Positions 6,729-28,930 of a stretch of 32,000 bases of DNA are shown here, piece after piece. The DNA is from Methanosarcina siciliae T4/M (GTDB lineage Archaea; Halobacteriota; Methanosarcinia; Methanosarcinales; Methanosarcinaceae), in NCBI RefSeq assembly GCF_000970085.1, contig NZ_CP009506.1, positions 2,315,186-2,347,185 on the forward strand, read 5' to 3'. A program made the translations under genes and the position numbers. The stretch's first letter is position 1, and the number at the start of each line of letters is the position of its first letter. The notes beneath the pieces were generated by a model. The model was not told the DNA's origin, did not search any database, and saw nothing but the letters and a program-made list of their open reading frames with translations.

Positions 6729-6973
6729 TGACTTTCTTTAACCTGATATACAATCTCGCTTCCATCTTCCCCTGTTTTCCGAATACCCTCACTACTTATG
6801 ATATAATCATCAGTTTCAGAAATGTCAGAAGCGTGATCCTGTATCGCTCTAATTGCCTCACCAATTGTAACAGGTTCATCTGCATTATCCGGAATATGAA
6901 TCGGTTCATCTATTCCTTTTTTTGCGATTAATGCAAGTTTTTCCAGTGCTTCGATCAGAGTCATTTCTGTCAT
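6725..6973 (-). CDS. Hypothetical small acidic protein, first gene of a two-gene cassette
   Basis: The 82-aa ORF is acidic (many D/E). A GGAGG-like motif precedes its ATG (ggaggaataaaatccATG on the minus strand). It has a 4-bp overlap with the downstream ORF. Confidence 0.45.
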   Translation of the reverse strand: MTEMTLIEALEKLALIAKKGIDEPIHIPDNADEPVTIGEAIRAIQDHASDISETDDYIISSEGIRKTGEDGSEIVYQVKESQ

Positions 6974-7158
6974 GGATTTTATTCCTCCTTCCAGAAGTTC
7001 TTTTCTTATTCTGCCCTAATATAGTTTGGGTCTCTTCTTCTATGTCTTTTATCTTCACAATATCTTTTTTTCAGTCCAGGAAAATCCCCGGCAGCCTGCT
7101 TAGAAGATGAAAATAATTTCCGAAAACCGCTGTTAAACTGAAGTTTCAAAGAAACGTG

Positions 7159-9069: not shown

Positions 9070-9261
9070 AACCGATTGCTGACCGTAAAAAAAGTTTTTA
9101 CAAAACTTTCTGTATGCTTTGCTCCGATTTCCAGCTTCCAGGACCAAGATAATAAGCTGCAAATCCCTAACAGCAAGCAGTACCCGATATTCTCCAACTT
9201 TCAAAGAATAAACTGGAGTGTTAGCAGGAGTTTTAAGCTTCCTGGAAAAATCAAACCCGCA

Positions 9262-10637: not shown

Positions 10638-10890
10638 AGGGTCGTTTTCCCTTATTTTCAGCAAATTATTAAGTAATCTCAAATCTTAAAACCAGTATCA
10701 AACAGCTTATTTTTTACTTTAACTGTCTAATCTTTGGAATTTACCTGTTTTTGTTTTGGTCAACAAAATTTGCTGGTCGACAAATAACTGGATAGTATAT
10801 AAGGAGCAGCAAGTTATAAACTTTTTCATTTTACACTGCCCGATATTGATATTAGTTTTTTGGTAGTGAACATACATGTACTTTGGAATG
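10638..10890 (-). promoter_or_regulatory. CRISPR leader of array 1 with candidate TATA box
   Basis: About 250 bp here are homologous to the sequence flanking array 2 (25478-25730). The shared start is AGGGTCGTTTTCCCTTATTT-CAGCAAATTATTAA. A shared GTATATAAGGA (TATATAA at 10796-10802) sits exactly 159 bp from the first repeat in both leaders. Confidence 0.7.
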
Positions 10891-13481: not shown

Positions 13482-13550
13482 TTTAGAGCCTCTTTAAAAA
13501 TGGGATATTAATTCAGAAACAATTTCATATAATTTTTAAAATTGAATGTG

Positions 13551-14555
13551 TCACTCTAAATTCGCAAATTTAAGCAGCCCAAAGGAACCAAGTTCAATCT
13601 TGTTAATTTTTTCTTCAAAGCAAGTACCCGGAACAAACGCAACCCCATTTGAACTCAAATACCTTCCAAAACCCTTTTTCAGATCGTACATTCTTCCTAC
13701 AAGTGGCTCAAGCTCACCTCTATATTTTATAGATTTCTCAGAGTCCAGTAACAGATGGCCGAATATAGGAACTCCTTTATTACCATTATCTTTGTTGAAA
13801 ATCAAACGATCTTCAGCGCTTTCAAGAAACCAGTCAAAAACAGGGGTACGCTCAATCTTTTTCACTTCAGTTATTCTCAATTCCAATTTCCCGAATCCAT
13901 ATCTAAGATCTCCCCCAACATGGATTTCATTTAAAGCTTCAAACAACTTTATTGAGGTATTCTCATACCCAAGTTCTATCTCTTCAAATTTTTCGCTGTT
14001 TTTTACAGAACATTTTTCAGAAATGTCTTCTTTCACAAAAAGATACCCTTTCCAATAAACCTGCATAACTCCACAATTTATTTTATCCAAAGTTTTGCAA
14101 TTTACCTTGTTCAAGATATATTCGGTCTCATGCAAACTTTCATCCATTGCCGAGTTCCTGTTTCCTACTGTTGCTGTGGAAACAAAAGAGCTAATGAAAG
14201 TGGATTCAAATTCTCTTTCGGAACACTTGCCATATTTTAAGCCTTCTTGCGTAAAGATTGGATTAAATGTATGTTGAATGTTCCCATTTTCTTGGTCTGT
14301 AATCTCTGGAAAGAAATACGTATTTTTTACATATCTTTCAATACATTTCCCAACCTCTTCGTAAACTTTGGGATTGTATTTTATTCCTTCGTCAATTAAT
14401 TTTCTTGCCGCGTTTGCGGTTAGAGCGCCCCACATTGTTTTACCAGGGATATACCTCCGGGCTTGCTGAATAAATCCTATTTTTCGACTGCCGATGAAGA
14501 TAGGAGATTTTGCTTTAAATCTTATCTCAAAGCATGTATAACCCATAGTTCTCAC
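13551..14555 (-). CDS. cmr3: Type III RAMP subunit Cmr3 (Cas5 group)
   Basis: The 334-aa ORF is the last effector gene and overlaps the cmr5 stop by 4 bp. It has a RAMP-like N-terminus (FEIRFKAKSPIFIGS...IPGKTMWGALTANAARKL) and a C-terminal glycine loop (HVGGDLRYGFGKLEL). Its position matches cmr3 in the III-C gene order. Confidence 0.65.
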   Translation of the reverse strand: MRTMGYTCFEIRFKAKSPIFIGSRKIGFIQQARRYIPGKTMWGALTANAARKLIDEGIKYNPKVYEEVGKCIERYVKNTYFFPEITDQENGNIQHTFNPIFTQEGLKYGKCSEREFESTFISSFVSTATVGNRNSAMDESLHETEYILNKVNCKTLDKINCGVMQVYWKGYLFVKEDISEKCSVKNSEKFEEIELGYENTSIKLFEALNEIHVGGDLRYGFGKLELRITEVKKIERTPVFDWFLESAEDRLIFNKDNGNKGVPIFGHLLLDSEKSIKYRGELEPLVGRMYDLKKGFGRYLSSNGVAFVPGTCFEEKINKIELGSFGLLKFANLE

Positions 14556-14998
14556 TCTCTCTTTTCCTCATCAGCATTTTCTTCCTCTTCCGAATTCCCT
14601 CTTTCTCCTGCATTTAGAGATTTTGCACGATAACGTGCATAAATAAAGGTTTGTTCAAGAACTTGCTTTGCGAAAAGCAATTTTCTTATATCAGTTGAAA
14701 GATTGATGATTTTTCCTTCTTCACTTCCCCCAACGCCGGATTCAATTTCTATATTACACTCTTCCAGAATCTTCACTACATCGATTCTGTTATTTCGATT
14801 CCCGTTTTTGTTTGAAGCTTTTAAATATAACCATAGAGCGTACACCCCATTTGATGACAGAACTCCTAATGATTTATTTATGAAAGATTCTATCTCTTTA
14901 GGTTTCATCCCTTCCTTTGAACCTTCAGGTTTCATTAATTTATCAACAATATCGAAACCGCTTTTTGCAGCGATAAAATCAATATTATTTTGAGCCAT
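14552..14998 (-). CDS. cmr5: Type III small subunit Cmr5 (Cas11 group)
   Basis: A ~149-aa protein is predicted from the internal ATG (MAQNNIDFIAAKSG...). The longer ORF to 15094 would overlap cmr4 extensively. The sequence looks all-helical (LGVLSSNGVYALWLYLKA) with an acidic tail. It sits between cmr4 and cmr3. Confidence 0.6.
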   Translation of the reverse strand: MAQNNIDFIAAKSGFDIVDKLMKPEGSKEGMKPKEIESFINKSLGVLSSNGVYALWLYLKASNKNGNRNNRIDVVKILEECNIEIESGVGGSEEGKIINLSTDIRKLLFAKQVLEQTFIYARYRAKSLNAGERGNSEEEENADEEKRE

Positions 14999-15983
14999 TT
15001 TCTCCCACTTCCTCAATCGTAACTCTTCCGAAACCTCTTGTGACCATCCCACCGATACCAAGAGTCTCAAAGTAGCAGAACCCACCTTTAACAATTGATT
15101 TTACATCGAGAAGCGAGATCAGGGTGTTACTTTTCCCTTCCTTTGAGCTGTTCTCACTCTTTTTGCCATATCCAAAATAATCAGGATCGTTTATACCCAG
15201 TTCAAACCAGAGTATAGTGCTCCTCGGGATGGCTTCACTGGTAAAAAGGGCACCATCCTTTCCTGCACCAGTTACTGGATCAATAGATACTGAAGTTCTT
15301 ACCTCAAGGTTAGAATTTATAATCTGGGAGATTAATGAATCAGGTACGATTACAATTCTGCTGGAGAGCAATTTATTTTTCTTTGAACCGAGGGATGCAA
15401 GATGATCAAATGATGGCAATTCTTTTTCATCTTCAATTGGAAGATTGAGCCACCCAAGATTCAGGCTTGATTCCCCTGAGAACTCAGAGCCAACCACTAT
15501 AAAGCTATTCGAAGGCTTGTTTTTTGTCTCTAATTGAATTCCAAAATCTTCTAAAATCATGGGAGAAGTTATCCATGCAGGCCCAATCCTTGTACTAACT
15601 GGGAATAAAAGGATGTGAGCGTCGCTAAAGTAAACAAGCCCCTGTGAGCTTCCTCTATCATCATTCTTTGAGAAACCAAAGGATCTACAGATAATGCATT
15701 TTCCACAGTGACCTTTTTTATTATTTCCAGGTGATACATCATTGTCTTGTCCTGCACAAGTAATTTTTACCTTATATTCTTGATCTTCTTTCTGATCCTC
15801 TATTTCTTTATATGTAGCATAAGTCCTTGCAGTCCCTGCAATGCTGCTTCCGGGAATTTTTGGAAGATTGGTTGCTGGCTCTCTCACTATAGTATTATCT
15901 ACACGGCCTATCTGGTAGCCCCCGGTGCCGATGTGTATCGGATCAAGCGTAAACATAAAGTATTTACTCATTTTTATCACCAT
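14985..15983 (-). CDS. cmr4: Type III backbone RAMP subunit Cmr4 (Cas7 group)
   Basis: The N-terminus FTLDPIHIGTGGYQIGRVDNTIVREPATNLPKIPGSSIAGTARTY carries the Cmr4/Csm3 signature, including the candidate catalytic Asp. Also present are HCGKCIICRSFG, VYFSDAHILLFPV and a C-terminal GIGGMVTRGFG loop. The start could be the second Met (MSKYF, 15971). Confidence 0.85.
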   Translation of the reverse strand: MVIKMSKYFMFTLDPIHIGTGGYQIGRVDNTIVREPATNLPKIPGSSIAGTARTYATYKEIEDQKEDQEYKVKITCAGQDNDVSPGNNKKGHCGKCIICRSFGFSKNDDRGSSQGLVYFSDAHILLFPVSTRIGPAWITSPMILEDFGIQLETKNKPSNSFIVVGSEFSGESSLNLGWLNLPIEDEKELPSFDHLASLGSKKNKLLSSRIVIVPDSLISQIINSNLEVRTSVSIDPVTGAGKDGALFTSEAIPRSTILWFELGINDPDYFGYGKKSENSSKEGKSNTLISLLDVKSIVKGGFCYFETLGIGGMVTRGFGRVTIEEVGENGSK

Positions 15984-18900
15984 TTGGCTTCAATTTTAGT
16001 ATAGAGTTGTAAAACTCCAGAATATCAAAAATCGTTTTGTCGAGACAAACCTTCTTAAGCAGCTCTTTTCCCTCTTTATCTAAAGAATTCCACCACTTAC
16101 GAGTTCCAACATTTATCAAAATGTTTTCAATTTGTTTTTCGAGAGTTTCATAGTATTCAGTTTTATTTTTCTCTTTACAGTCTTTCCAATCCATATGGAG
16201 TTTCACAAGGTTTTCTTGTATGTTTTTCAGTTGTGAAGTTGTCATGTATTGTGTATTGAACAAGTTCCATACCTTTTCAAAGACTGACGAGAACTCTTCA
16301 AGAAGGTAAGGCTTTGAACCTTTAAGCGAACTTTTATCAATTCTCTTATGATCACTATCATAACTAATTTCCAATCTTCGGGCCGTGGTATCTAAAAATT
16401 CGAAATCGAAATAATTGGGATAAAGCTTTACACAATCTCCCTGGTCTAAATCGGACCCGTTGATTAGAAATTCCTTTTCATTCTCTATAAATGTTTTAAA
16501 AAAGCTCTTTTTTTTCTGTGCTTTATCTTCAGAGGTCTTAAGAAGGAAGTTAAAATAATATTTTGCCTGCTCATCTAAGCATTTATTCAATTGAATTTCT
16601 TTCTTCCTAATTCCCTGGTTATCAACTTCCAGATTGTCAACTTCCAGATTAACTATAGGAGAGTCTTTTGAAAAATTACTTACTGAAAAATCCATAAATT
16701 CAACGTCTTCAAAACCGTTAAGCATTCTTCTAGATGCATTTACAGCGGCATAAAGAGCTGTTTTTGAATCAAAAAAGACAACACCTAAGTTTAGAGGTAG
16801 TCTCCCTGCAACATTTCCCATTTCTAATGAATATTTTGCGTGAATTTCAGATATTATTTTTGGAACACTGTTTGCAGGCACTATAAATTGAAACGTAACT
16901 GGAGATAACAAAACTTCAAGGAAAGGATTGTAATAACTCCCATAAAAAACATCATTGATTATATATCTTTCAAATTTATCTGGTTTTGTTCCTTCAAGTT
17001 CGATTTCAATTTCATCCCCAATATATTTTTTTAACTTGTCTGTCGTATCATCAAACAAGCCCTTTAATTCAGGTATGTCTAAATTTTGGGTAGTGATGAA
17101 TTTTTCTCCATCGAAATACATTACAATGCTCAATTTCTTGAATTTTGCTACGTATGTGCCACGTAATAGACCTTTTGTATCTTTTAAAGTGATATTTAGG
17201 CGCTTAAATCGAATCTTCGATGAGGTTTCAATATCTTTGTAATCATGGGCAGTGGGTATGTAAATGTAGTAATTTTCATTATTCTTTAAAAAGTCACTGG
17301 TTTCCTTCCAGAAGGTTTCAGTAGATGTCCAAATCCGCCTCAATCTTGAAGGAGATGGATGTTTCCTGAAAATAGTTAGTAACAGACGTTCTGTCGCTTT
17401 TTCACAACTGGAACCATCCTTCCAATTGTTTATTTTAGCATCCCAAAGTGGATTTCTATCTACCACTAAATTTTCATAGAACTGGTGGGAATTCATTTCA
17501 CGTTGGTAAGACTCTCCAGCAATCTCTTCTAAACATTTTGGCTTTCCTTTATTTATTTTCAGTTCTTGCCTCAAGCAGTCACTCAACGAGTTCCAATTAT
17601 CGTATGATTCTAAGTTTTGAGTTGTCTGGGAAAAAACAGTATTTAGGAGTTCTCCATTAAGCCACTTACTTAGATTGAACCTTCCTGTTACGATTGCTAC
17701 TTTTCCATTTGAATCTGCAATTTCATTAATCCAAATTGTGGGGTACTTTTTATCGGAGAAATTATTAGGTAACCAATCTTTTATTCGGCTTTCTCCCCTA
17801 TTCAAACAACACTTACAAACTTCCTGATGTTCACATTTCGGATGAACTTTACATACAGGGCAAATATCAACCTGATATTCTTTATTGCCTCCCCCAGCTA
17901 TACATTCATGATATCTTGTACAGGTATTTTTGCAAAAACTACGTTTTATTCTTCCATTATTAATACATTGATCATTACTCTTGCAAACATCACAAGAACT
18001 TTTTGAAACCTGGGCATCTTGAACATCGATGGTCAAAACTTGATCCCATTTTTCTTTCCATTCAGGGACTTCTTCGTGAAGCTGAAAATTACCTCTTGCT
18101 TCGGTTAAAAGATTTGTAAGTAAGACTAGAGAACGAGAAGATTCACTTATGGATATATATGGTATAACTTCCCCATCAGACTTTTTATTTACTCTACACA
18201 GTATTTCTTCTTTTATCAATTTCTCTAGAGAATCCCGGCCTATATCAGGACCAACAAAATAGATACCACTTTCATCTCTGTAGATTTCATTTCCAATTGG
18301 AAATTCTTCTTCTATATACGTTTTTATTTCTTGATCAATATCCTCAGTTAGTTTTCTGTATGCTACAATATCAACCAACTTGTGTGCCTTTTCTACCAGA
18401 CCAAGTTTATCGTATTGCACCCCTATAATAACCCACTTTAAATCTTTTAGATTAGTCCATTCCCCATTATGTATCATATTTGCAATGGCTGATTTGTAAA
18501 GACTTGCAACAGAATAAGAATGATCCCATAGAGTAACATCATTTCCACTTCGCCTGGTATCTCCAAGGGCTTTTAGGAATTCTTTTTTCAACAGTTCAAT
18601 TATTTTTTTTCTCTGCATCACTATATTATCTGGTTTTTCAGAAATTTCTTCTAAGTAGGTAGACAATTCATTGCAAAGATTTTCTCTGCTCGGCTTTAAA
18701 TCTTCAATGTTAATTTTCTTTTCATGCCCAAAAGAAGTAGATATTTTTGTACACTCAATTGATTGCTTTCCAATATTTTGAAGAATACCTTTGTCTACTC
18801 CAGAATCAAGACGATCAATATTTTTTAATAACTCGATAAGTCTTTTATCAGTTTTTTTTCCATGATGTTCTGAAATTATTTCTTTAGGCCCCGCCAATTT

Positions 18901-19266
18901 TTCGGAGAATATAGGTTTAATTGTGTTAGTCCTAATATTTTTATTTATAATGTCCTTGAATACTTCTTTAGAAATTATTTCTTTAAAACTTGAACTCAAA
19001 AATTCACTATAATCAAATTTATCGTTGTTTTCGCTAAAAATATTATAATGCTTAAATTTGCAATAGATACTGTAATTTTTTTTTGAATCGAAGCATTCTT
19101 TACTTTGTTCAACTATGAACTCTTTACTTAATTTCCCTAAATCGTGCAACAGAGAGTAAATTTCAGACAGAAGAATGAAATCGGCATTTTCTTTAATGCG
19201 CTCTTGTCCATTCATTAATACGCCCCTGTTCTCTTCAAGAACATTCAAATTCCGGTCTTTGTTCAC
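15964..19266 (-). CDS. cas10: Cas10 (Cmr2-like) large subunit: HD motif present, canonical GGDD cyclase motif absent
   Basis: The 1100-aa ORF has an HD region LLHDLGK (res 39-45), with EHHGK and RLDSGVDK downstream. TLWDHSYSVASLY is present, as is a Cys-rich Zn cluster at res 425-487. HPSPSRLRRIW precedes the second palm domain. Where GGDD is expected the sequence reads LLSPVTFQFIVPANS (res 786-800), followed by the conserved RLPLNLGVVFFDSKTALYAAVNASRRML. No GGDD, GGDE or SGDD occurs anywhere in the ORF. Confidence 0.9.
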   Translation of the reverse strand: MNKDRNLNVLEENRGVLMNGQERIKENADFILLSEIYSLLHDLGKLSKEFIVEQSKECFDSKKNYSIYCKFKHYNIFSENNDKFDYSEFLSSSFKEIISKEVFKDIINKNIRTNTIKPIFSEKLAGPKEIISEHHGKKTDKRLIELLKNIDRLDSGVDKGILQNIGKQSIECTKISTSFGHEKKINIEDLKPSRENLCNELSTYLEEISEKPDNIVMQRKKIIELLKKEFLKALGDTRRSGNDVTLWDHSYSVASLYKSAIANMIHNGEWTNLKDLKWVIIGVQYDKLGLVEKAHKLVDIVAYRKLTEDIDQEIKTYIEEEFPIGNEIYRDESGIYFVGPDIGRDSLEKLIKEEILCRVNKKSDGEVIPYISISESSRSLVLLTNLLTEARGNFQLHEEVPEWKEKWDQVLTIDVQDAQVSKSSCDVCKSNDQCINNGRIKRSFCKNTCTRYHECIAGGGNKEYQVDICPVCKVHPKCEHQEVCKCCLNRGESRIKDWLPNNFSDKKYPTIWINEIADSNGKVAIVTGRFNLSKWLNGELLNTVFSQTTQNLESYDNWNSLSDCLRQELKINKGKPKCLEEIAGESYQREMNSHQFYENLVVDRNPLWDAKINNWKDGSSCEKATERLLLTIFRKHPSPSRLRRIWTSTETFWKETSDFLKNNENYYIYIPTAHDYKDIETSSKIRFKRLNITLKDTKGLLRGTYVAKFKKLSIVMYFDGEKFITTQNLDIPELKGLFDDTTDKLKKYIGDEIEIELEGTKPDKFERYIINDVFYGSYYNPFLEVLLSPVTFQFIVPANSVPKIISEIHAKYSLEMGNVAGRLPLNLGVVFFDSKTALYAAVNASRRMLNGFEDVEFMDFSVSNFSKDSPIVNLEVDNLEVDNQGIRKKEIQLNKCLDEQAKYYFNFLLKTSEDKAQKKKSFFKTFIENEKEFLINGSDLDQGDCVKLYPNYFDFEFLDTTARRLEISYDSDHKRIDKSSLKGSKPYLLEEFSSVFEKVWNLFNTQYMTTSQLKNIQENLVKLHMDWKDCKEKNKTEYYETLEKQIENILINVGTRKWWNSLDKEGKELLKKVCLDKTIFDILEFYNSILKLKPNGDKNE

Positions 19267-20447
19267 TCCCTCACCTTCTTGGAATCCTGCAGTCTTTGGC
19301 TGATATGTTTAGCAATATCAGTTAGTTCTTCAAAAGTGCTAAAAGACCAAGTTGGCCATTCAATAGAGGTTTTAGCTTCAGACTGAAGATGTTTCTGCCA
19401 GCCAGATGCATGGAATTTATACCATCGTTTGAACATTTTAAACTCTTTTAGAGGCCCTCCGCCACTTTGAGCTAATTTTTCACCCGTAATATTAGTTATC
19501 GGTTTACCCTCTGCACCTTTAAACGAATCTTTTAGAGTTCCATCTTCATTAAGATATTTTAAAAATATCTTTTCTGGTGGCTTCATATCTTCATGTATAG
19601 AAACAGTAACACATTTTGTTTTCAGGGTAATTTTCCCGTCCATGAGTTTATCTTCGACAATCCCAAATCCACTTGCCGTTTTGGCACCGAAACCATGGAC
19701 CAAGAACATATCTTTAAGTCCTTTAGAAATGAGGTATATATCGAAGGCAACGTTATCATTAGCATGTGATTTTTCTTCATCAGAAACACAAAAAGGAACA
19801 TAAAGCAAACTGAATGAGCCGGTACTTTTGGCAGGTACAACTTCATAATAAATAGGATTTATACCTGCTTTTCTTTCTCTATCATGTGGATTTATGACTT
19901 CAAGTTTGATATTGTCAAAATATGTAGGAAATAGAATTAAAAATCCTTTTTTGTTATCATTCTCTTTGTCAGATACGTATCCAAATAACCGGTCAATAGA
20001 TCGAGACTTTAATTCGTCATGCTTTTCTTCATCATTACTTTTAACGATAGCATTTCTTAAGGTGCCAGCCCATCCGCTTGGGCGCACCATGGGAATCTTA
20101 AAAATGGATTCTTTACATATAGGATTGTCAATAATATAGAACTGTTCATCATCTTTACTGTAAAACGGTTTCTTAAGTTTGAATTTAAATTGGACAAAAA
20201 AGGAATTAACAGGAAGAATACTAATATTAATCATTGGCTGGCATAAATTTAAGTCATGCAACAACTGGATTGCACTTTTCAACCTCAAATTACTATTGTC
20301 AATTTCATTTTTATAATCTTCTAATTTTTCTTTTTTATCCAATGAATATAGCTGAATTTTTGAATAATAATCTGATATATCATTTATTTCTGATGAATCT
20401 GAAAAATAGCTATAAAAATCATACGAATGCGTATTAGACATCCCCAT
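19263..20447 (-). CDS. cmr6: Type III RAMP subunit Cmr6 (Cas7 group)
   Basis: The 394-aa ORF contains RPSGWAGTLRNAI, DRLFGYVSD...KGFLILFPTYF, INPHDRE and a C-terminal HGFGAKTASGFG loop. It has a 4-bp overlap with cas10. Confidence 0.75.
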   Translation of the reverse strand: MGMSNTHSYDFYSYFSDSSEINDISDYYSKIQLYSLDKKEKLEDYKNEIDNSNLRLKSAIQLLHDLNLCQPMINISILPVNSFFVQFKFKLKKPFYSKDDEQFYIIDNPICKESIFKIPMVRPSGWAGTLRNAIVKSNDEEKHDELKSRSIDRLFGYVSDKENDNKKGFLILFPTYFDNIKLEVINPHDRERKAGINPIYYEVVPAKSTGSFSLLYVPFCVSDEEKSHANDNVAFDIYLISKGLKDMFLVHGFGAKTASGFGIVEDKLMDGKITLKTKCVTVSIHEDMKPPEKIFLKYLNEDGTLKDSFKGAEGKPITNITGEKLAQSGGGPLKEFKMFKRWYKFHASGWQKHLQSEAKTSIEWPTWSFSTFEELTDIAKHISQRLQDSKKVRE

Positions 20448-21417
20448 TCCTCCCGTTTTGAATATTTAGAAGAATGTCTTTTCCTGTAATTATATTGTTA
20501 ATATCCTGCTTAATTCTGGTTTGTAACTTTCTTTTGATAATATCAAGTTCTTGTTCATTTCGCACGTAACCAAAAACTTTATTTCCGATCTTAAACGAAA
20601 ATATTTTTTTACTCGAACCTGGTATCATACTTGAAGCACGATTTCCTCGAAGAAATTCTAAAAATTCGTCTCCATAAATAGAAACATTTCCTTTATTGTC
20701 CAATCCAAATATTTCATTTATCTTCAACCGATCCAAGTATTCCCCTTTTATTATCCAGTAATACCTAAAATCAAACCAGTTTTTATTGTTAATTTTTCCA
20801 CAATTTTCTGTAATAGTCTTAATCCATTTTTGAGTTTTATTATAATCAGATTTGCTTGCCCAATCAGTATTTACTAAATTGACTTCGATTAAACCGTAAT
20901 CCTTCCCAACTGGACTTCCCTGAGGCTTACGAGTTGTTCTACCACCGAATGCTCCGTAATTTTCAATTATTTGCAATGTTTGAAATAATAGCCACTTCTC
21001 GCTATCTGAAATCTTAAAAATCTCATAAAATTCAATTTCTAAAATCCCACTATAGCCATCATCATTCATTCTTTGACTAAAAGTACCCCCTAAATCGTTT
21101 GCTACAATCTTAAATCGCCGTTTCCACCCGGTACATCCAAATAACCTGCAGGCAGGGCAAACGTTTTTAAGTCCAATTTCCAGTGCTTCATCTACATTTT
21201 GTCCTTTTTCCAATGCTTTCTCATAGTCCTTTGTGTTGAACTCACATCCCCCATTTGAAGGATCACAAGCATATCCTCCCATACCTCTCACTATTGCTTC
21301 ATACCACCACCGCATGCTCCCGATGATGCTGGTCTCTTTTATTGTTGTACATTTTTGATTTGCATCTCCGGTCCAGATGGGAGTCAAAGTCTTAAATTTG
21401 ATTTCAGTTTTAACCAT
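20434..21417 (-). CDS. cmr1: Type III RAMP subunit Cmr1 (Cas7 group)
   Basis: The 327-aa ORF contains LTPIWTGD, GSMRWWYEAIVRG, CPACRLFGCTGWKRRFKI and GAFGGRTTRKPQG, which are hallmarks of Cmr1-type RAMPs. Confidence 0.8.
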   Translation of the reverse strand: MVKTEIKFKTLTPIWTGDANQKCTTIKETSIIGSMRWWYEAIVRGMGGYACDPSNGGCEFNTKDYEKALEKGQNVDEALEIGLKNVCPACRLFGCTGWKRRFKIVANDLGGTFSQRMNDDGYSGILEIEFYEIFKISDSEKWLLFQTLQIIENYGAFGGRTTRKPQGSPVGKDYGLIEVNLVNTDWASKSDYNKTQKWIKTITENCGKINNKNWFDFRYYWIIKGEYLDRLKINEIFGLDNKGNVSIYGDEFLEFLRGNRASSMIPGSSKKIFSFKIGNKVFGYVRNEQELDIIKRKLQTRIKQDINNIITGKDILLNIQNGRNGDV

Positions 21418-21438
21418 GTATTATTCCCTTGTACAAGC

Positions 21439-22182
21439 TTAATTACGAGATAATGTATTGGCATTCCAAACAGTACTTTTTAGAAAATCAGAGGATTTTT
21501 GGCAATTATACCCCCTTATTTTCCTCACAGTCCCAAACCCCTTCGCAACCCCTTTTCCTATTCCCATAAAATCCGGAATCAAAAAATTAGCTATAAAACC
21601 GCCTGTAAAAGAAGTAAAATCCATATTTTTGTACTTTGAACGCCTGAGTTCCACATCGACATCACATTTTATGGTATCGGGAACCGTATATCCAAAAGTC
21701 TTTGACATCGAGAGTAAATTTCCTGCCAGGGTCCTTCTTAGCATTTCCTTTTGCTCTTCGGGGTTTTTGGTCTCAAGAAATTTCTCCTCATTTTCTTTAT
21801 TAAGGGCCATCCAGGGAGTTAGAAATTCATAAAAGTAAATGCTTTTTGTAAGCCCAAAGTCCTGTTTTTTAAGCCTCAAAGAGCGTTCCGTGATCTCAAA
21901 GTCTTCGTGAGGAAGGGTTACCGTATCAAATTTATCAAATAAACCTTTCAAGATTTCTGCGCCTTCGTTTACCCCAACTACCAGAGGTGTCCTGTCAAGA
22001 ACTTTGTACTGCACTAAAGGGTAGCGGTAGTAAAACCTGTCAGTATTATGGTTGTGGAGAAGGTCATATTCATTGAATTTTGATGCAAAAAACCCACGGA
22101 TCTGATTTGCATCTCCCCTGAACTCCTCTTCGCCTTCAAAAGTCATTTCAAGGGTTTTGAGCTTAATGTTCCCAGGATTCAT
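21439..22182 (-). CDS. cas6: Cas6 CRISPR repeat endoribonuclease
   Basis: The 247-aa ORF contains RYPLVQYK and a C-terminal glycine-rich loop, GIGKGVAKGFGTV. It is the first gene of the effector string. Confidence 0.75.
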   Translation of the reverse strand: MNPGNIKLKTLEMTFEGEEEFRGDANQIRGFFASKFNEYDLLHNHNTDRFYYRYPLVQYKVLDRTPLVVGVNEGAEILKGLFDKFDTVTLPHEDFEITERSLRLKKQDFGLTKSIYFYEFLTPWMALNKENEEKFLETKNPEEQKEMLRRTLAGNLLSMSKTFGYTVPDTIKCDVDVELRRSKYKNMDFTSFTGGFIANFLIPDFMGIGKGVAKGFGTVRKIRGYNCQKSSDFLKSTVWNANTLSRN

Positions 22183-22304
22183 AATATCTATAAAGAATTT
22201 TTTACAAATACATTTTTTAAATTTTATTGATTTTTGTTATAAGATAAATAACTTATCATATTAATCAGATAACATTTCTAAATAATTATAAACATGATAT
22301 ATAT

Positions 22305-23519
22305 TTAAATAAAATCTTGAATTTTTTTATTAAAACATTGTTCAATTCTTTCAAGCCCGGAAGCATAATCCGTGTGCCTGTAGTAATTTACCCAAGGGTC
22401 TACGACATTATAAATATTTTTTATTACAATATTAAGAGCCTGATACTCGTTTTCAGAGTCAAATTTGTTCTTTTTTCCTTTAAATTCAATATCTATGCTC
22501 TCAATACTCTCTATTATCTTCTCAATTGACCCATCGGTGGGTAATACATTTATTCTGTTTCCCAAGCCGTTTTCATCCAGAATTTCCTGAAAATAGAACC
22601 CCACGAATTCAAACCCATTAGCTGCTGCCCCCACATAGGTTTTTTCTCTGTTTAATTCGAGCCCAAGTTCAGCCATAATAGTCTCAGCCCTCTCAGGCTT
22701 AATCCACTCCTTTGAAAGGACTACAAAATCATCTGCAAAACGTACGAGGTGTTCAATTGATTCCCCTTCAACATTCTTGAGCCCGATTTCTGCCCAGTGG
22801 TTGTCGAACTGGTCCAGGTAGAAGTTTACAAGAAGCGGAGAGATTATCCCGCCTTGGAGCAACCCTTTATTTGAGTTTTTTCCGGAACCGCTTCCAAAAG
22901 AACCTTTTTTGAGCCAGCTCTCGACCAGGGAAAGGATCAGCTCATCTCCAATCCTTGTTTTAATGATCTTCATGAGCTTATCATGGGGGATGTTGTCAAA
23001 ACAGCCCTCGATATCCCCCTTCAGGTAATGGGTGTTTCCGGCTTCGAGCCATTTGTAGACTTCAAGACTGGCAAGTTTTGCAGACCTGTACGCCCGGTAG
23101 CCGTAGGAACAATTTTCAAAATCAGCTTCAAAAATAGGTTCAAGGACGAGTTTTACAGCTCCCTGGACAAGCCGGTCTCTCAGAGTCAGGATTCCAAGCT
23201 GTCTTGTTTCTCCGTTTCGTTTTGGAATCTCAACCCTTTTTACTGCATCGGCAATATATTTGCCATCTTCAAGCTCTTTCTTTACGACACGGATGAATTT
23301 GTCGACCCCGGAAGCTTCTACCTGCTGGACAGTTAGAGAGTCAAAACCAGTGCCTTTTGTGTTCTTGTTCAGGTTTTTCCAGGCTGTATAGAGGATCTCG
23401 TCTTTCAAAAGCAGTTTTTTAAGCTTCCGGAACCGTTTTTGCGGGTTCCTCTTCGCTTTGTTATACAGTTTCAGTTGAATTTCGGCTAGAGTCTGGTTCT
23501 GTATATCAGGTACCTCCAT
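22305..23519 (-). CDS. Standalone group-II-intron-like reverse transcriptase (RT plus maturase/thumb-like X region), CRISPR-associated
   Basis: The 404-aa ORF shows RT motifs in order: RVEIPKRNGETRQLGILTLRDRLVQ (RT1-2), YGYR (RT3), KGDIEGCFDNIPH (RT4), LLQGGIISPLL, and VRFADDFVV (RT5 catalytic FADD). The C-terminal DPWVNYYRH resembles the maturase X-domain motif. There is no endonuclease domain and no Cas1 fusion. Confidence 0.9.
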   Translation of the reverse strand: MEVPDIQNQTLAEIQLKLYNKAKRNPQKRFRKLKKLLLKDEILYTAWKNLNKNTKGTGFDSLTVQQVEASGVDKFIRVVKKELEDGKYIADAVKRVEIPKRNGETRQLGILTLRDRLVQGAVKLVLEPIFEADFENCSYGYRAYRSAKLASLEVYKWLEAGNTHYLKGDIEGCFDNIPHDKLMKIIKTRIGDELILSLVESWLKKGSFGSGSGKNSNKGLLQGGIISPLLVNFYLDQFDNHWAEIGLKNVEGESIEHLVRFADDFVVLSKEWIKPERAETIMAELGLELNREKTYVGAAANGFEFVGFYFQEILDENGLGNRINVLPTDGSIEKIIESIESIDIEFKGKKNKFDSENEYQALNIVIKNIYNVVDPWVNYYRHTDYASGLERIEQCFNKKIQDFI

Positions 23520-23566
23520 AAATGGTTCTTAATTTCCAGTCGTCTACAGAGCCTGATATACTTAGC

Positions 23567-23594
23567 CGCGAAGAATTCGGGTTTTTTCCGAATT
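23567..23594 (-). promoter_or_regulatory. Palindrome-containing 5' module upstream of the RT gene (shared with cas1)
   Basis: Read on the minus strand, the region is AATTCGG-AAAAAAC-CCGAATTCTTCGCG. The ATG follows 47 nt after CGCG, with TCTGTAG at +17..23. The cas1 upstream region has the same arrangement. Confidence 0.6.
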
Positions 23595-23658
23595 AAAGGA
23601 CTCGATACTTTTTCGTGATTTCAGTTTTTATCCACGGAGGTGGAGTTTATGGATATTA

Positions 23659-25477
23659 GTTTCAATCCTTGTTTTAGTGGCTGTTACCGTTTTTCATCAG
23701 GGTACCAAAAGGAGAGATTCCCAGAAATGGGGGTTTCAATCCTTGTTTTAGTGGCTGTTACCGTTTTTCTGACATCACGAAACTTGGATCACTGCTCAAA
23801 ATTTATAAAAAGCTGTACAAAAAGGATGTATTCGTTTCAATCCTTGTTTTAGTGGCTGTTGCTGTTTTAGTGAAGAGTGCATAAATTCTATAATTATTGT
23901 GAAAGTTTCAATCCTTGTTTTAGTGGCTGTTGCTGTTTTAGTTGAATGAACAGTTGAGGATAATAGCGATGTTTATAAGTTTCAATCCTTGTTTTAGTGG
24001 CTGTTGCTGTTTTAGCATTGAAGTATCAAGTGTTTGTGCATATTTTCTAGTTTCAATCCTTGTTTTAGTGGCTGTTGCTGTTTTAGTTGAGGTTGAAGAT
24101 CTGACTGTGAAGGAGGGCTATATGTTTCAATCCTTGTTTTAGTGGCTGTTGCTGTTTTAGTCGGAAACAAAATGGATTTAATTGGCCAAGAAGAGTTTCA
24201 ATCCTTGTTTTAGTGGCTGTTGCTGTTTTAGTTGTCATCAGAAAATCTTGATGAACAGCTTGATAGTTTCAATCCTTGTTTTAGTGGCTGTTGCTGTTTT
24301 AGCTGTAATAAAGATTTCTGCGAGAGAGATAGATACTGAGTTTCAATCCTTGTTTTAGTGGCTGTTGCTGTTTTAGATCGGTGATGGAAAGGATTGCTAG
24401 AATTGATAATAAGGTTTCAATCCTTGTTTTAGTGGCTGTTGCTGTTTTAGCTGGAAGATTGATCATCACCCAGAAGAATCGAGAGATGTTTCAATCCTTG
24501 TTTTAGTGGCTGTTGCTGTTTTAGTAAGGGGCACACGGTTGTTCCTGTCGAAGCAGAAAAACGTTTCAATCCTTGTTTTAGTGGCTGTTGCTGTTTTAGG
24601 AATAATTACGCAAGAAATGGAAGATGGTTACAAGAGTTTCAATCCTTGTTTTAGTGGCTGTTGCTGTTTTAGCGAGAGATTGAAACAAGCAGAGGAAGAC
24701 AATAAATTTGTTTCAATCCTTGTTTTAGTGGCTGTTGCTGTTTTAGAAATTATCTTCGGTTTTAAAGCTAAAAATAAATGAAGTTTCAATCCTTGTTTTA
24801 GTGGCTGTTGCTGTTTTAGCGTGTATATCTCAAGGAAGAAGGAATGGAAAACCCAGTTTCAATCCTTGTTTTAGTGGCTGTTGCTGTTTTAGTTTTGACC
24901 AAAGGACTAGCTCATGTAGTTATATTTAGTTTCAATCCTTGTTTTAGTGGCTGTTGCTGTTTTAGAATAAAAGTCTAACCGTGATTGATATCATTGATAA
25001 AGGTTTCAATCCTTGTTTTAGTGGCTGTTGCTGTTTTAGCAGAGACACTTGTGTCTAGGGGAATGAGAGTGTCAGGTTTCAATCCTTGTTTTAGTGGCTG
25101 TTGCTGTTTTAGGTAAAAACAAAAACGGAGTGCAAAAAATGGAAAAGTTTCAATCCTTGTTTTAGTGGCTGTTGCTGTTTTAGTGGCAGATATAGATCCC
25201 AAATTTTTCGAGAAAACAAGTTTCAATCCTTGTTTTAGTGGCTGTTGCTGTTTTAGAATCAAGAGATAAGAGGAATAACCGGATCTATACTGGTTTCAAT
25301 CCTTGTTTTAGTGGCTGTTGCTGTTTTAGGTGGAAAACACTGGTTTTTTAAAAAATACAAAAAGAGGTTTCAATCCTTGTTTTAGTGGCTGTTGCTGTTT
25401 TAGTCCCATATCTGGCACATGGAAAAGTTTTCCCAGAAGAGTTTCAATCCTTGTTTTAGTGGCTGTTGCTGTTTTAG
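23659..25477 (-). CRISPR. CRISPR array 2: 25 repeats of 37 bp, 24 spacers (34-38 bp plus one of 63 bp)
   Basis: The repeat is the same as in array 1. Repeats start at 23659, 23733 (both the ...ACCGTTTTTC variant), 23833, 23904, 23979, 24050, 24124, 24195, 24266, 24340, 24414, 24488, 24563, 24636, 24710, 24783, 24856, 24928, 25003, 25076, 25147, 25220, 25293, 25367 and 25441. The leader is on the right, so the array is transcribed on the minus strand. Confidence 0.97.
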
Positions 25478-25730
25478 AGGGTCGTTTTCCCTTATTTACA
25501 GCAAATTATTAAATAATTCCAAATCTAAAAAACAATAGCAAGCAAATTATTTTTTGCTTAAACTGTATAATATTTAAAATTTGCTTACTTCCATTTTTGT
25601 TAACTAAATTTGTCCATCGACAATTAGCTAAGGAGTATATAAGGATGGATACCATATAAACTTTTGTATTTTCGACTGCTTGGCAGCGAAATTATTTTTT
25701 TGACAATGTACATATCTGTACACTTCTTTA
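25478..25730 (-). promoter_or_regulatory. CRISPR leader of array 2 with candidate TATA box
   Basis: This region is homologous to 10638-10890. TATATAA at 25636-25642 lies 159 bp from the first repeat, the same distance as in leader 1. Confidence 0.7.
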
Positions 25731-25964
25731 AAATCATTTGTAAAGTAGGGTATCCGGGATACATTTATAATTCTAATACGAAGTTCATAGCGCCGCCTCA
25801 TGGTGGATTTTTCATCCGGGCTCCTCAGAAAAATCCAAATTTTCTTTAGAAATACTTCAAAATAGTTTTTTATGATGTTCTATGTAGATGTTGTTTTTTT
25901 GAAAATTCATGGGTCAAATTGAGAAAAAAGCGTGATTCTTCAGGAAAACGGGGATACAAACTTC

Positions 25965-25995
25965 AAGAATTCGGATAAAGACCGAATTCTTCGCG
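25965..25995 (+). promoter_or_regulatory. Perfect 10-bp-stem palindrome upstream of cas1 (candidate operator)
   Basis: AAGAATTCGG-ATAAAGA-CCGAATTCTT is followed by CGCG. The ATG of cas1 lies 49 nt after CGCG, with TCTGTAG at +17..23. The 14-mer CCGAATTCTTCGCG recurs as its reverse complement at 23567-23580, upstream of the RT gene. Confidence 0.65.
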
Positions 25996-26044
25996 AAATA
26001 ATACTTATAGATCTGTAGGCTTAAATGAAAAGTGAACTTCTATT

Positions 26045-27094
26045 ATGGTTTTCAAATTCAGGAGGGAATTCTGGATTAGGTTGATTGTTGACGAATACGG
26101 GACTTATATACATAAGAAGAGCAACCGGTTTATTTTCGTTGATAAGACTGAAAAGCTGCTCAAAAAAGGGTTTTCAGCGGATAAAGTGTCTCAGATCCTT
26201 ATTTACAAAGGAGCTGCAGTTACTGCTGATGCGATAGAGCTTGCGGTTAAAAAAGGAATAGACATAGTTTATTTTGACCGGCTGGGGAAGCCTTTTGCAA
26301 GGACTTATTCCTGCGAACAGGAAAACTCTGCAACCGTACAGCGCTACCAGGCAAGGGCTTATGATGACGGAAAAGGGATTTTTCTTATGGGCTCCATGAT
26401 CGGAGCTAAAATAAGGAACCAGGGATATCTGCTGAAAAGCCTGGCAAAAAAGAGAAATAATGAGCGCTTAGTGGGACAGGCGGAAAGGATCATGTCCCTG
26501 TCCGAAAAAATAAAGGAGCGGGCTGAAGAGTGGGGATATATTGAAGAAGCAAGGGAGAGCCTGTTCGGGATTGAAGGCGAGGCTTCAAGGATTTACTTTC
26601 AGGCCCTCTCAAATGTCCTTCCCGAAGCCGTGTACTCGGGGACGAGAACAAAAAGGCCGCCTGGAGACCTTTTTAATGCAATGCTCAGTTACGGGTACGG
26701 AATTCTCTATACCGAAGTGGAAAAAGCCTGCGTGCTCTCAGGCCTCAACCCCTACATGGGTTTCCAGCATACCGACCTTCCGGGAAAGCCGTCTCTTATC
26801 CTTGACCTGATTGAAGAATTCCGGCAGCCGGTTGTGGACAGGGCTGTGATAAGCCTTATCTCAAAAAAGCTTGTAACAGAAAAAGACCTCAAGTCGGTTG
26901 AAGGCGGTTTTTACCTGAACAGGGCCGGAAGGCGCAAAACTCTAGAAGCAGTCTCCGAAAGGCTTGCAAAAACTGTAAATTACAGGGGTTTCCGGCACTC
27001 ATTTTCCATCTTAATCCTGAAGCAGACAAGGGCGGTTGCAAAATTTCTTACCGGAGAGAGCAGCGGATATGCTCCTTTTGTATACTGGCGATAA
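26045..27094 (+). CDS. cas1: Cas1 integrase
   Basis: The 349-aa ORF contains GIDIVYFDRLGKPFARTY, EGEASRIYFQAL, PPGDLFNAMLSYGYGILY and GFQHTDLPGKPSLILDLIEEFRQPVVDR. These are canonical Cas1 motifs, including the His and Asp/Glu catalytic positions. Confidence 0.95.
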   Translation: MVFKFRREFWIRLIVDEYGTYIHKKSNRFIFVDKTEKLLKKGFSADKVSQILIYKGAAVTADAIELAVKKGIDIVYFDRLGKPFARTYSCEQENSATVQRYQARAYDDGKGIFLMGSMIGAKIRNQGYLLKSLAKKRNNERLVGQAERIMSLSEKIKERAEEWGYIEEARESLFGIEGEASRIYFQALSNVLPEAVYSGTRTKRPPGDLFNAMLSYGYGILYTEVEKACVLSGLNPYMGFQHTDLPGKPSLILDLIEEFRQPVVDRAVISLISKKLVTEKDLKSVEGGFYLNRAGRRKTLEAVSERLAKTVNYRGFRHSFSILILKQTRAVAKFLTGESSGYAPFVYWR

Positions 27095-27148: not shown

Positions 27149-27454
27149 ATGTTTTTGTGGCTCGTCTACGACATAACCGATAACAACCTACGGAACAGGG
27201 TCTCGGAAAAATGCCTGGACTTCGGGCTCAGCAGGTTCCAGAAAAGCGTTTTTTTCGGCGAGCTTGACCCTGAAAAGATGAACGGACTTGCAGACGAAAT
27301 CGAGCAGCTACTTGACCATGAAGAGAGGACTGAAGAAGATTCCGTGCTCCTGTCTCCGGTTTGCATGGCCTGCCTGGGAAAAAGGCTCGTAATCGGGAAG
27401 GACTTCAACCCTGAAACATACGCAGAAAAAGAATGCTTATTTATTGCTGAATGA
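27149..27454 (+). CDS. cas2: Cas2
   Basis: The 101-aa ORF starts MFLWLVYDITDNNLRNRVSEKCLDFGLSRFQKSVFFGEL, a ferredoxin-fold Cas2 signature with the conserved N-terminal Asp. It lies directly after cas1. Confidence 0.9.
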   Translation: MFLWLVYDITDNNLRNRVSEKCLDFGLSRFQKSVFFGELDPEKMNGLADEIEQLLDHEERTEEDSVLLSPVCMACLGKRLVIGKDFNPETYAEKECLFIAE

Positions 27455-27571: not shown

Positions 27572-28342
27572 ATGGCAGTAATGATTGCAACCCTCGGAGG
27601 GTCGGGAGATATCGTAAAACTGGGAGTCCGCCTGATGGAAAACGTAGATGAGGTCCTGCTGGTTGCCGGAAAGCCTTTATCCGAGCTCTATCCGGAATCC
27701 GAGATAAAAGCAGGTGCGGAAATCGTGAATCCCCCGGAAAAAGCTTCTGAGCTGGAAAGTCTCCTTGGGGGTTTCGGGATCAGAGTCAAAACCTTCAAAG
27801 TAGACCCCTTTAATTTCAAAGAATGCCTCATAACGATAATCGAATTGATCAATGCCCAGCCCGAAGGAGTCGAAGTTGTTTTAAACGTTACAGGCGGCAC
27901 GAAAATCCTCTCACTTGCAGCCTTGAGTGCTGCAGGCATGTGCCGCTGCAAAGCCTTTGTAATCCAGGAAAAAGGAAACGGTAGCATCAAACTTGAACTC
28001 CCCATGCCTGATCCCGGTTATTTCGAAAAAATCGGAAAGCAGGGAAAAAAGACCCTCTCCTACCTGATGCAGGAAGAAAAGAAGCTAAAAGACCCGACCG
28101 AGCAGTGCAGCGATGAAAAACTCAGGCCCTTCATAAGCAAAAACATAGCAAACCACCTCGGAGTAACGCCTCAGACCCTTAATCCAATCCTCAAGTCCCT
28201 GGAATTTTCCGGGCTTCTCTCCGGCAGGAAAGGCTCGATAAAAAGAGGGGAGCCTGCAGGCGGAAAAAGTGGAGTGAAAATCTGGAGGCTGACCGACGAA
28301 GGAAAAATCTACGCTGCTTATTTCAGTAAAGAAAATCGGTAG
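27572..28342 (+). CDS. csa3: Csa3-like CRISPR-associated regulator (N-terminal CARF domain plus C-terminal winged HTH)
   Basis: The 256-aa ORF has a Rossmann-like N-terminus (VMIATLGGSGDIV) and the CARF signature LNVTGGTKILSLAA. The C-terminus looks like a wHTH (ISKNIANHLGVTPQTLNPILKSLEFSGLLSGRKG...WRLTDEGK). Confidence 0.8.
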   Translation: MAVMIATLGGSGDIVKLGVRLMENVDEVLLVAGKPLSELYPESEIKAGAEIVNPPEKASELESLLGGFGIRVKTFKVDPFNFKECLITIIELINAQPEGVEVVLNVTGGTKILSLAALSAAGMCRCKAFVIQEKGNGSIKLELPMPDPGYFEKIGKQGKKTLSYLMQEEKKLKDPTEQCSDEKLRPFISKNIANHLGVTPQTLNPILKSLEFSGLLSGRKGSIKRGEPAGGKSGVKIWRLTDEGKIYAAYFSKENR

Positions 28343-28509
28343 CCTTTAATTGGGTAGTCAATCGAACTCATCGAAAGTCAGTTGAGCTGAGAATTTCAAG
28401 AAAGGGATCGCAAAGCCCTAATATTTCAGATAACATCTGCTTTCTTCTTTCATCAGGAATAGTATTGTATATTTTTGGATGTATAAAAAACTTCGAAGTC
28501 CATTAAAAT

Positions 28510-28893: not shown

Positions 28894-28930
28894 GTTTCAA
28901 TCCTTGTTTTAGTTGATCTTGTTTTTGAAT
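28894..28930. repeat. Solitary degenerate CRISPR repeat (third sequence variant)
   Basis: GTTTCAATCCTTGTTTTAGTTGATCTTGTTTTTGAAT matches the array repeat over its first 20 nt and then diverges. There is no neighbouring repeat within normal spacer distance. Confidence 0.7.

Follow-up and report, generated by a model that had tools for sequence, protein, structure and literature searches.

The control of spacer acquisition by CRISPR systems is poorly understood outside Sulfolobus, and nothing is known of it for systems that use a reverse transcriptase (RT). In Sulfolobus islandicus, the regulator Csa3a binds an imperfect palindrome located just upstream of the transcription factor B (TFB) recognition element (BRE) and TATA box of csa1, and activates the adaptation genes (PMC4333418). 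Here we analyze a stretch of 32,000 nucleotides from Methanosarcina siciliae T4/M (contig NZ_CP009506.1, positions 2,315,186 to 2,347,185; hereafter the window, numbered from its first nucleotide), in which a short element with dyad symmetry precedes two divergent genes, cas1 and the RT gene, and a Csa3-like protein is encoded by the third gene of the cas1 operon. The analysis yields a precise 24-bp candidate operator, TTCG-N9-CGAA-N3-TTCG, together with a named candidate regulator, and the prediction is directly testable in genetically tractable Methanosarcina species.

The Csa3a system (PMC4333418, PMC5587795) is similar to this locus in that a regulator combining a CARF domain with a winged helix-turn-helix (wHTH) domain is encoded beside the adaptation genes, and in that its site, an imperfect palindrome of approximately 24 bp (TTCNTAACTAAANANGGNNNGAAA), lies immediately upstream of the BRE and TATA box (predicted ones in the present locus) and is reused at more than one CRISPR promoter. 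The two systems nevertheless differ in several respects. The window protein shares only about 15% identity with Csa3a, fails the TIGR01884 model and belongs to PF19810, while its candidate site contains three TTCG units in a forward-reverse-forward arrangement, with a different half-site sequence and geometry. The host here is a euryarchaeal methanogen, and among the targets would be a group-II-intron-like RT and, probably, the operon of a type III-C effector. Finally, the regulator gene is part of the cas1 operon, not divergent from it, and binding and activation are predictions in this case.

Two further CARF-wHTH proteins provide points of comparison. HFX_2341 of Haloferax mediterranei, the founder of PF19810 (DUF6293), represses cas genes when over-expressed (PMC11434293). 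It shares with the window protein the Pfam N-terminal family, has a Csa3a-like structure and influences cas1/2/4 as well as effector cas transcripts; in contrast, it is a chromosomal global regulator encoded outside CRISPR loci, has no known binding site (PMC11434293) and was missing from the sequence homologues retrieved with the window protein. MM_0565, encoded next to the type I-B locus of Methanosarcina mazei, comes from the same genus and has the CARF-wHTH architecture; it is dimeric, binds conserved leader DNA and affects a cas1-type gene (PMC7465815). It differs in being a shorter protein of about 22 kDa that binds inside the leader with micromolar affinity, with no distinct motif found and no reported link to an RT (PMC7465815), and its orthology is unsupported, as it is absent from the homologue list of the window protein. 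The window RT, in turn, is a member of RT-CRISPR clade 1, already described from Methanosarcinaceae (Toro et al. 2017, PMC5541045), with which the locus shares its gene content: type III cas genes beside a stand-alone group-II-like RT, with cas1 encoded separately. That study classifies RTs and Cas1 proteins, and its text contains neither "Csa3" nor "regulat", so that it describes no regulator or cis element. Our literature search found no description of the motif or of any operator for the HFX_2341_N/DUF6293 family; the nearest published work concerns Csa3a and Csa3b of Sulfolobus, MM_0565 and HFX_2341. Judging from the sequence, the arrangement would be of a kind already known, in which a CRISPR-associated CARF-wHTH regulator acts on a palindromic operator of adaptation promoters; what would distinguish it is the extension to an RT-linked type III cassette in methanogens and anaerobic methanotrophic (ANME) archaea, and the three-half-site design.

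Two copies of the element in the window

The pattern AATTCGG-N7-CCGAATTCTTCGCG has exactly two occurrences in the window, at 25968-25995 on the plus strand and at 23567-23594 on the minus strand. The first, upstream of cas1 (26045-27094, plus strand; Pfam, NCBIfam), reads AAGAATTCGG-ATAAAGA-CCGAATTCTT-CGCG over 25965-25995, and the second, upstream of the RT gene (22305-23519, minus strand), reads AATTCGG-AAAAAAC-CCGAATTCTT-CGCG over 23567-23594. Direct reading and pattern searches thus confirm the preliminary description of this DNA, which had reported an identical 14-mer within the same cis element upstream of both genes. The 14-mer, CCGAATTCTTCGCG, is restricted to these two sites even when two mismatches are allowed (shuffled sequences gave a mean of 0.15 matches), and a palindrome pattern search of the window likewise returned the two copies as its sole good matches. 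An exact repeated 14-mer is unremarkable on its own in 32 kb, where a few chance pairs are expected, but for 21 specified bases at identical spacing only about 2e-4 pairs are expected by chance (both values are estimates).

Within each copy, the core TTCG-N9-CGAA-N3-TTCG was located by direct reading and pattern searches. On the cas1 side it occupies 25970-25993 on the plus strand (TTCGGATAAAGACCGAATTCTTCG) and sits within a dyad with 10-bp arms (25965-25991); on the RT side it occupies 23569-23592 on the minus strand (TTCGGAAAAAACCCGAATTCTTCG), the dyad arms lying at 23574-23580 and 23588-23594. The element had been described as palindrome-containing, and the dyad is indeed present, but the unit that is conserved consists of three half-sites and is not a single palindrome.

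Conservation of the core in related loci

The relatives of the window proteins pointed to a Methanosarcina, probably M. siciliae. Exact-sequence look-ups of the window RT and Csa3-like proteins returned no record, and relatives were used instead: loci were gathered through homologues of the two proteins (numbered here with the prefix L) and then scanned for the core. The core is conserved in approximately 30 related loci, where it precedes RT, cas1 or both by 40-54 nt, counted from the aligned N-terminus. These loci come from Methanosarcina, ANME-2/Methanomarinus-like contigs, a 1.9-Mb contig of a metagenome-assembled genome and Methanosalsum, and the core is found where RT identity is as low as 42% and Csa3-like identity as low as 50%. 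An exact core occupies the cas1 position in L016, L021, L023, L039, L040, L053, L048, L061, L067 and L093, and 14 other loci, Methanosalsum L089 among them, have one at the RT position, where it precedes the RT N-terminus by 48-54 nt. M. siciliae C2J, M. horonobensis, L016, L023, L053 and L041 each possess the two copies; in the last of these, cas1 is truncated, cas2 and the csa3-like gene are lost, and a base adjoining unit 2 of the cas1-side copy is substituted. The earlier proposal that the same element stands in the same position before RT and cas1 therefore held up, at the level of comparative genomics, for both genes across several genera.

The pattern of divergence identifies the part of the element that is retained. 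In Methanosarcina copies the arms are invariant and the 7-nt spacer is free (AAAAAAC, AAAAACC, AAAAAAG, ATAAAGA, ATTTTTT, TTTTTTC and others), whereas in distant lineages (Csa3-like 50-59%, RT 42-58% identity) the arms themselves differ (GATTCGA...TCGAATC, ATTCGAT...ATCGAAT, GAGTTCT...GAACTC) and the core is kept. The 7-9 nt separating units 1 and 2 are free to change in sequence while the cores are constant, with 26 of 26 sequences agreeing at six of the eight core positions. In an alignment of the Methanosarcina regions upstream of RT, similarity begins abruptly at the motif, and the trailer side is unalignable. This conservation across species is decisive for the motif being real, and the prediction spans many genomes, the motif extending from Methanosarcina to ANME-2-like archaea, with a re-spelled version in a distant branch.

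The preliminary description had also presented the two copies as bracketing CRISPR array 2. They do flank this array in the window, but the bracketing is incidental: in L044, the 1.9-Mb contig, the interval between RT and cas1 contains no array, and the copies there lie back to back with 55 bp between them (6779-6880), which indicates that the bracketing is a by-product of divergent gene order. In the same locus, an insertion sequence element (DDE_Tnp_1; 6969-8597) is inserted between the cas1-side copy and cas1.

The specificity of the motif was assessed by scanning 185,579 species genomes for exact matches to AATTCGG-N5-9-CCGAATTCTTCGCG. The scan returned 38 hits, in 3 Methanosarcina assemblies and 35 bacterial ones. 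The three Methanosarcina assemblies hold 1-2 exact copies each, all beside a CRISPR array and cas1 or RT. Of the bacterial matches, 34 of the 35 have a gap of 5, 6 or 8 nt, come mostly from Alphaproteobacteria and were treated as unrelated without inspection, and the lone match with a 7-nt gap (L036) was set aside as chance, being inside an open reading frame (ORF) and selected by the scan pattern. The scan is an incomplete census, as the M. siciliae (source) and M. horonobensis loci carry exact copies and were not returned. The fetched DNA, about 0.7 Mb, has exact cores at RT and cas1 promoters and, L036 apart, nowhere else, against a chance expectation estimated at about 0.1. A miniature inverted-repeat transposable element (MITE) or other dispersed repeat was rejected on these grounds, with two good copies in the window and the scan and fetched loci placing exact cores at RT/cas1 promoters; the scattered copies that the preliminary description had named as a result that would refute its proposal did not appear in this search for exact matches.

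Promoter context and translation starts

Both copies adjoin a predicted core promoter, whose BRE and TATA roles are assigned from archaeal promoter architecture and from sequence only. For cas1 this promoter would extend over 25994-26018 (plus strand), comprising an 8-nt spacer at the BRE position (CGAAATAA, 25994-26001), a TA-rich octamer (TACTTATAG, 26002-26010) and the conserved TCTGTAG (26012-26018). For the RT operon it would extend over 23544-23568 (minus strand), with the spacer CGGCTAAG (23568-23561), TATATCAGG (23560-23552) and TCTGTAG (23550-23544). TCTGTAG starts 16 nt past CGCG at both copies. In every copy the dyad and third half-site end exactly 8 nt ahead of the TATA-like, TA-rich octamer, which is often TATATCAGG; this same sequence recurs at +8 before RT or cas1 in the distant lineages L048, L049, L067 and L093.

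In the window, the first in-frame ATG past CGCG lies at 49 nt for cas1 (26045) and at 47 nt for RT (23519), and this near-equal distance had been read, together with TCTGTAG and the TATA-like box, as conserved downstream spacing. TCTGTAG and the box do stand at a fixed distance, but the distance to the ATG was rejected as a conserved feature because the ATGs at 23519 and 26045 are peculiar to M. siciliae: among the loci compared for start codons (L016, L021, L023, L040, L041, L053, L048, L049 and L061), the RT position is taken by ACG or AAG in other Methanosarcina, most of which have an in-frame stop 0-2 codons before a cas1 ATT. In relatives outside the genus, the cas1 ATG aligns with this Methanosarcina ATT (M-RLIID versus I-RLIVD). 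The corresponding candidate start in the window is the ATT at 26075-26077, with a Shine-Dalgarno sequence, AGGAGGG (26060-26066), 8 nt upstream. For RT, all lineages have GGAGG and, 5-8 nt beyond it, an in-frame ATA, ATT or ATC, and no conserved ATG, GTG or TTG start was found across them; the start region in the window is 23517-23502 (minus strand), with a candidate start at 23504. It is thus likely that cas1 and RT both start at non-AUG codons (26075 and 23504 in the window), which may act as a translational throttle on the adaptation proteins.

The Csa3-like protein as candidate regulator

The third gene of the cas1 operon (27572-28342, plus strand), which follows cas2 (27149-27454, plus strand; Pfam, NCBIfam), encodes a 256-aa protein with a CARF and a winged-helix domain. 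Pfam assigns it to HFX_2341_N (PF19810, "DUF6293") with 33.9 bits against a cut-off of 30, with weak matches to Csa3_N, CARF_Card1 and HTH_Crp_2, and the Csa3 family models are missed (TIGR01884, 22.2 versus 60.2 bits; Csa3_N, 20.2 versus 27). A sequence search of the PDB with this protein found no Csa3 and only a marginal MarR-type HTH hit. Its AlphaFold 2 model (predicted local distance difference test score, pLDDT, 85.6) displays a Rossmann-like beta-alpha N-terminal domain and a winged-helix C-terminal domain (H-H-H-beta-beta topology), and the top Foldseek hits of the model are S. solfataricus Csa3 structures (2wte, 6wxq and 6w11; E-values 8e-10 to 1e-7, probability 1.0), followed by other CARF proteins. 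The label of Csa3-like neighbor thus stands as regards architecture and fold, the model best matching Csa3, but not as regards family, since the protein falls below the Csa3 threshold and is filed under HFX_2341_N/DUF6293; it probably resembles Csa3 in function as well.

The sequence family is narrow, comprising 31 clusters annotated as DUF6293 or HFX-2341-like. The window has the order cas1-cas2-csa3like, as do all related loci in which cas1 is intact, while the neighboring effector modules vary among Csx11 (III-C), Csm (III-A) and Cmr2-palm/Csx19 types. This constant order beside varying effectors implies that RT, cas1-cas2-csa3like and the two motifs behave as one cassette. In some metagenomic contigs, L055 (447-2021) and L062 (1988-3337), two csa3-like paralogues stand in tandem after cas2, with 54% and 72-74% identity to the window protein.

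More distant homologues (28-33% identity; L069-L085) carry a different array, TCTGA-N7-TCAGA-N2-TCTGA-N7-TCAGA, directly upstream of their own gene, about 15 nt before its ATATATA box. In this branch the gene for the HFX_2341_N and HTH regulator heads a type III-A csm operon, and the TCTGA dyad appears again before csa1-cas1-cas2-cas4 in L077 (where the two arrays lie at 5976-6011 and 7920-7955), L072 and L070/71, whereas in L076 the array occupies a shared divergent intergenic region (7690-7760). Its geometry is similar to that of the core, with direct-repeat units 19-20 bp apart, and its half-site differs. Read from sequence, the distant branch appears to follow the same logic, one putative operator array recurring at both the adaptation operon and the operon to which the regulator gene belongs. 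The TCTGA-N7-TCAGA arrays would represent a second candidate operator family, and they provide the strongest indirect evidence that members of this protein family bind such arrays.

Proposed function and alternative explanations

It is reasonably probable that the element is a shared operator, or upstream activating site, through which the Csa3-like protein would coordinate both operons. The proposed site would be double-stranded DNA with three half-sites, (A)TTCG(R) in forward orientation, CGAA(T) in reverse orientation after N9, and TTCG in forward orientation after N3, abutting the BRE/TATA region of two divergent promoters, one for cas1-cas2-csa3like and one for RT-cas6b plus the genes of the type III-C effector. 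It would be bound by the co-encoded CARF and winged-helix protein, acting as one dimer or two; this protein would control both operons together and autoregulate its own, with an activity modulated by a ligand of the CARF domain. Given a TATA box 8 nt after unit 3, transcription would start about 34-40 nt past the core, which would place the motif at approximately -62 to -39, touching the BRE. Archaeal activator sites usually lie just upstream of the BRE, and this position leans slightly toward activation, as for Sulfolobus Csa3a; by analogy, activation is favored over repression by a narrow measure. A regulator encoded within its own target operon would fit negative autoregulation equally well.

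Several observations weigh against this assignment. The half-site spacings, 14 and 6-7 bp center to center, are unusual for a simple HTH dimer, and cas1 copies in Methanomarinus-like contigs lack unit 1. A pattern search of Csx11 (15964-19266, minus strand; TIGR02682, 460 bits), the type III-C Cas10 homologue encoded in the RT operon, gave no GGDD/GGDE-type cyclase motif, which leaves no evident local source of a CARF ligand; cyclic oligoadenylate made locally for the neighboring CARF protein is therefore doubtful, and related cassettes adjoin Cas10 proteins with a palm2 domain. HFX_2341, the sole studied member of the family, is a repressor, possibly an indirect one, with no known site (PMC11434293), and for MM_0565, another CARF-wHTH protein, no distinct motif was found (PMC7465815). 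The genome-wide test of specificity is confined to exact matches in the Methanosarcina assemblies returned. Moreover, Methanosalsum L089 has the motif before RT and no csa3-like gene within 7 kb, although the regulator could be encoded elsewhere in that genome. Finally, cas1 and the csa3-like gene always co-occur, so that a promoter element of cas1 and an operator of the Csa3-like protein are inseparable by association.

The last two observations would equally suit a real promoter-proximal element that is read by another transcription factor encoded elsewhere, or by a particular paralogue of TATA-binding protein or TFB that recognizes an extended promoter signature. That the TA-rich box always stands 8 nt away and that TATATCAGG-N-TC-N2-TA is conserved also suggests that a whole promoter module is kept, and not an operator only. 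This explanation is possible but rather unlikely, given that the motif is confined to loci of a single RT/cas1/csa3-like cassette, that its dyad symmetry fits a dimeric wHTH protein, and that the distant csa3-like branch has an analogous array at its own promoter, which is hard to explain otherwise.

The dyad could alternatively form a hairpin or cruciform, for instance an RNA stem-loop that ends read-through of the precursor CRISPR RNA before RT, acting to terminate, stabilize or insulate. Array 2 is transcribed toward the RT-side copy, and the window copies do fold, the cas1 copy with -11.6 kcal/mol (z = -4.2). Across 26 sites, 84.6% of dyad cells are paired, the inner pair being G-C in 14 and A-T in 8, and the covariation score of 0.155 compares with 0.097 in shuffles and was exceeded in 2 of 500. 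However, this structure is not the minimum-free-energy fold in the cas1 copies of L048 and L061, where only 4-5 bp can pair, and in the 26 sequences the four core pairs never flip or wobble while outer pairs are often broken. The stem is not followed by a T-run, no sense transcription through the cas1-side copy is known, the strict spacing is to the TATA-like box and not to the end of the array, and a hairpin would leave the invariant unit 3 unexplained. A structural role of this kind is consequently improbable. An intrinsic terminator or structured RNA in the strict sense was largely rejected, as an Rfam search at the motif gave no match, only a single pair covaries, and the T-run and, in some copies, the fold itself are absent. 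Unit 3 is invariant and stands at a fixed distance from the TA-rich box, a T-run is missing, and the cas1-side copy has no known sense transcription; together these features favor recognition of double-stranded DNA by a symmetric protein, consistent with the proposed operator.

Cas1 descends from casposases, which bind terminal inverted repeats (TIRs). Since the copies have opposite orientations and stand on either side of array 2, both in the window and in most relatives, and A-rich and T-rich spacers appear flipped between some copies, the copies might be TIR-like recombination or integration sites for Cas1/RT or another recombinase, with their identity kept by gene conversion. This is very unlikely: the copies stand at variable distances from the array ends, in sequence that cannot be aligned, the cas1-side copy lies about 490 nt from the first repeat, the L044 copies stand 55 bp apart with no array between them, the paired operators of the distant branch flank other genes, and no locus shows an inverted array. 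A CRISPR leader integration signal, such as an integration host factor site or leader-anchoring sequence, was rejected in view of the same 490 nt, the location of the other copy at the trailer end, and L044. Lastly, a chance match, a neutral leftover of promoter duplication or the end of a dispersed repeat is hardly credible and is largely refuted, for although exact repeated 14-mers are common enough by chance in 32 kb (an estimate), here 21 specified bases recur at equal spacing with only two good copies in the window, the core is invariant across genera while flanks and spacer diverge, and the scanned Methanosarcina assemblies hold their one or two exact copies at the CRISPR locus.

A broader and more tentative proposal, which we consider doubtful at present, is that RT, cas1-cas2, the Csa3-like gene and the twin operators constitute a self-regulating portable cassette. 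In such a cassette, an infection signal sensed through the CARF domain would switch on RT-assisted (RNA-derived) spacer acquisition together with the adjacent effectors, the non-AUG (AUU/AUA) starts would act as a throttle, and the unit would have been exchanged among III-A, III-B/D and III-C effector modules in Methanosarcinales. If true, this proposal would describe for the first time a circuit that controls RT-linked CRISPR adaptation at the level of transcription, and would give the DUF6293/HFX_2341 family its first operator.

Gene order, arrays and further features of the locus

The RT operon (11025-23519, minus strand; Pfam, NCBIfam) contains, in order, RT, cas6b, two repeat-associated mysterious proteins (RAMPs), Csx11, a Cmr4-like RAMP, a small ORF corresponding to the small subunit, a further RAMP and an nSTAND3 NTPase. 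Its short or overlapping gene junctions indicate co-transcription, so that the RT-side motif probably heads the whole operon. The preliminary description had linked both genes to adaptation; on the RT side the motif, from the sequence, probably serves the entire RT-cas6-type III-C operon, beyond adaptation alone. The nSTAND3 NTPase (818 aa; 11025-13481, minus strand), the last gene of the type III-C operon, may be an accessory effector of the type III-C system, and the same arrangement occurs in M. siciliae C2J.

CRISPR array 2 (23659-25477, minus strand) lies between the motif copies, with a leader from 25478 to approximately 25960 that is conserved and adjoins cas1 in all relatives. The reverse complement of its repeat ends in ATTGAAAC, and degenerate repeats are located at the RT end; together with the position of the leader by cas1, these features indicate that the array is read toward RT.

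A third, degenerate copy of the motif, TTgG-N9-CGAA-CTC-aTCG, with two mismatches, is located at 28350-28373 (plus strand), directly after the stop codon of the csa3-like gene. It lacks a TATA-like element at +8, matches the cas1-side copy of the metagenomic locus L062 at 18 of 19 nt, and has no counterpart at this position in the other Methanosarcina loci checked; it is probably a relic. A lone degenerate CRISPR repeat (28894-28930; Rfam CRISPR-DR7, 43.5 bits) lies about 520 nt beyond it, and the two look like the remnant of a lost second module.

A second conserved block, AAGCGTGATTC-N4-GGAAAACGG, occupies 25928-25951 (plus strand), some 18 nt upstream of the cas1-side motif, and contains a small TTC(C/T)-N3-GGAA dyad. 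It is kept in 7 of 7 Methanosarcina cas1 upstream regions and is absent on the RT side, and it may be a further binding site or part of the leader.

Two repeat variants coexist in the window, one ending in GGCTGTTGCTGTTTTAG and the other in GGCTGTTACCGTTTTTC (array 1; array 2 left end, 23659-23770). The trailer-end repeats of array 2 are of the second variant, and array 1 (9261-10638), which adjoins a DDE transposase gene (7311-8972), carries a block of this variant in its middle.

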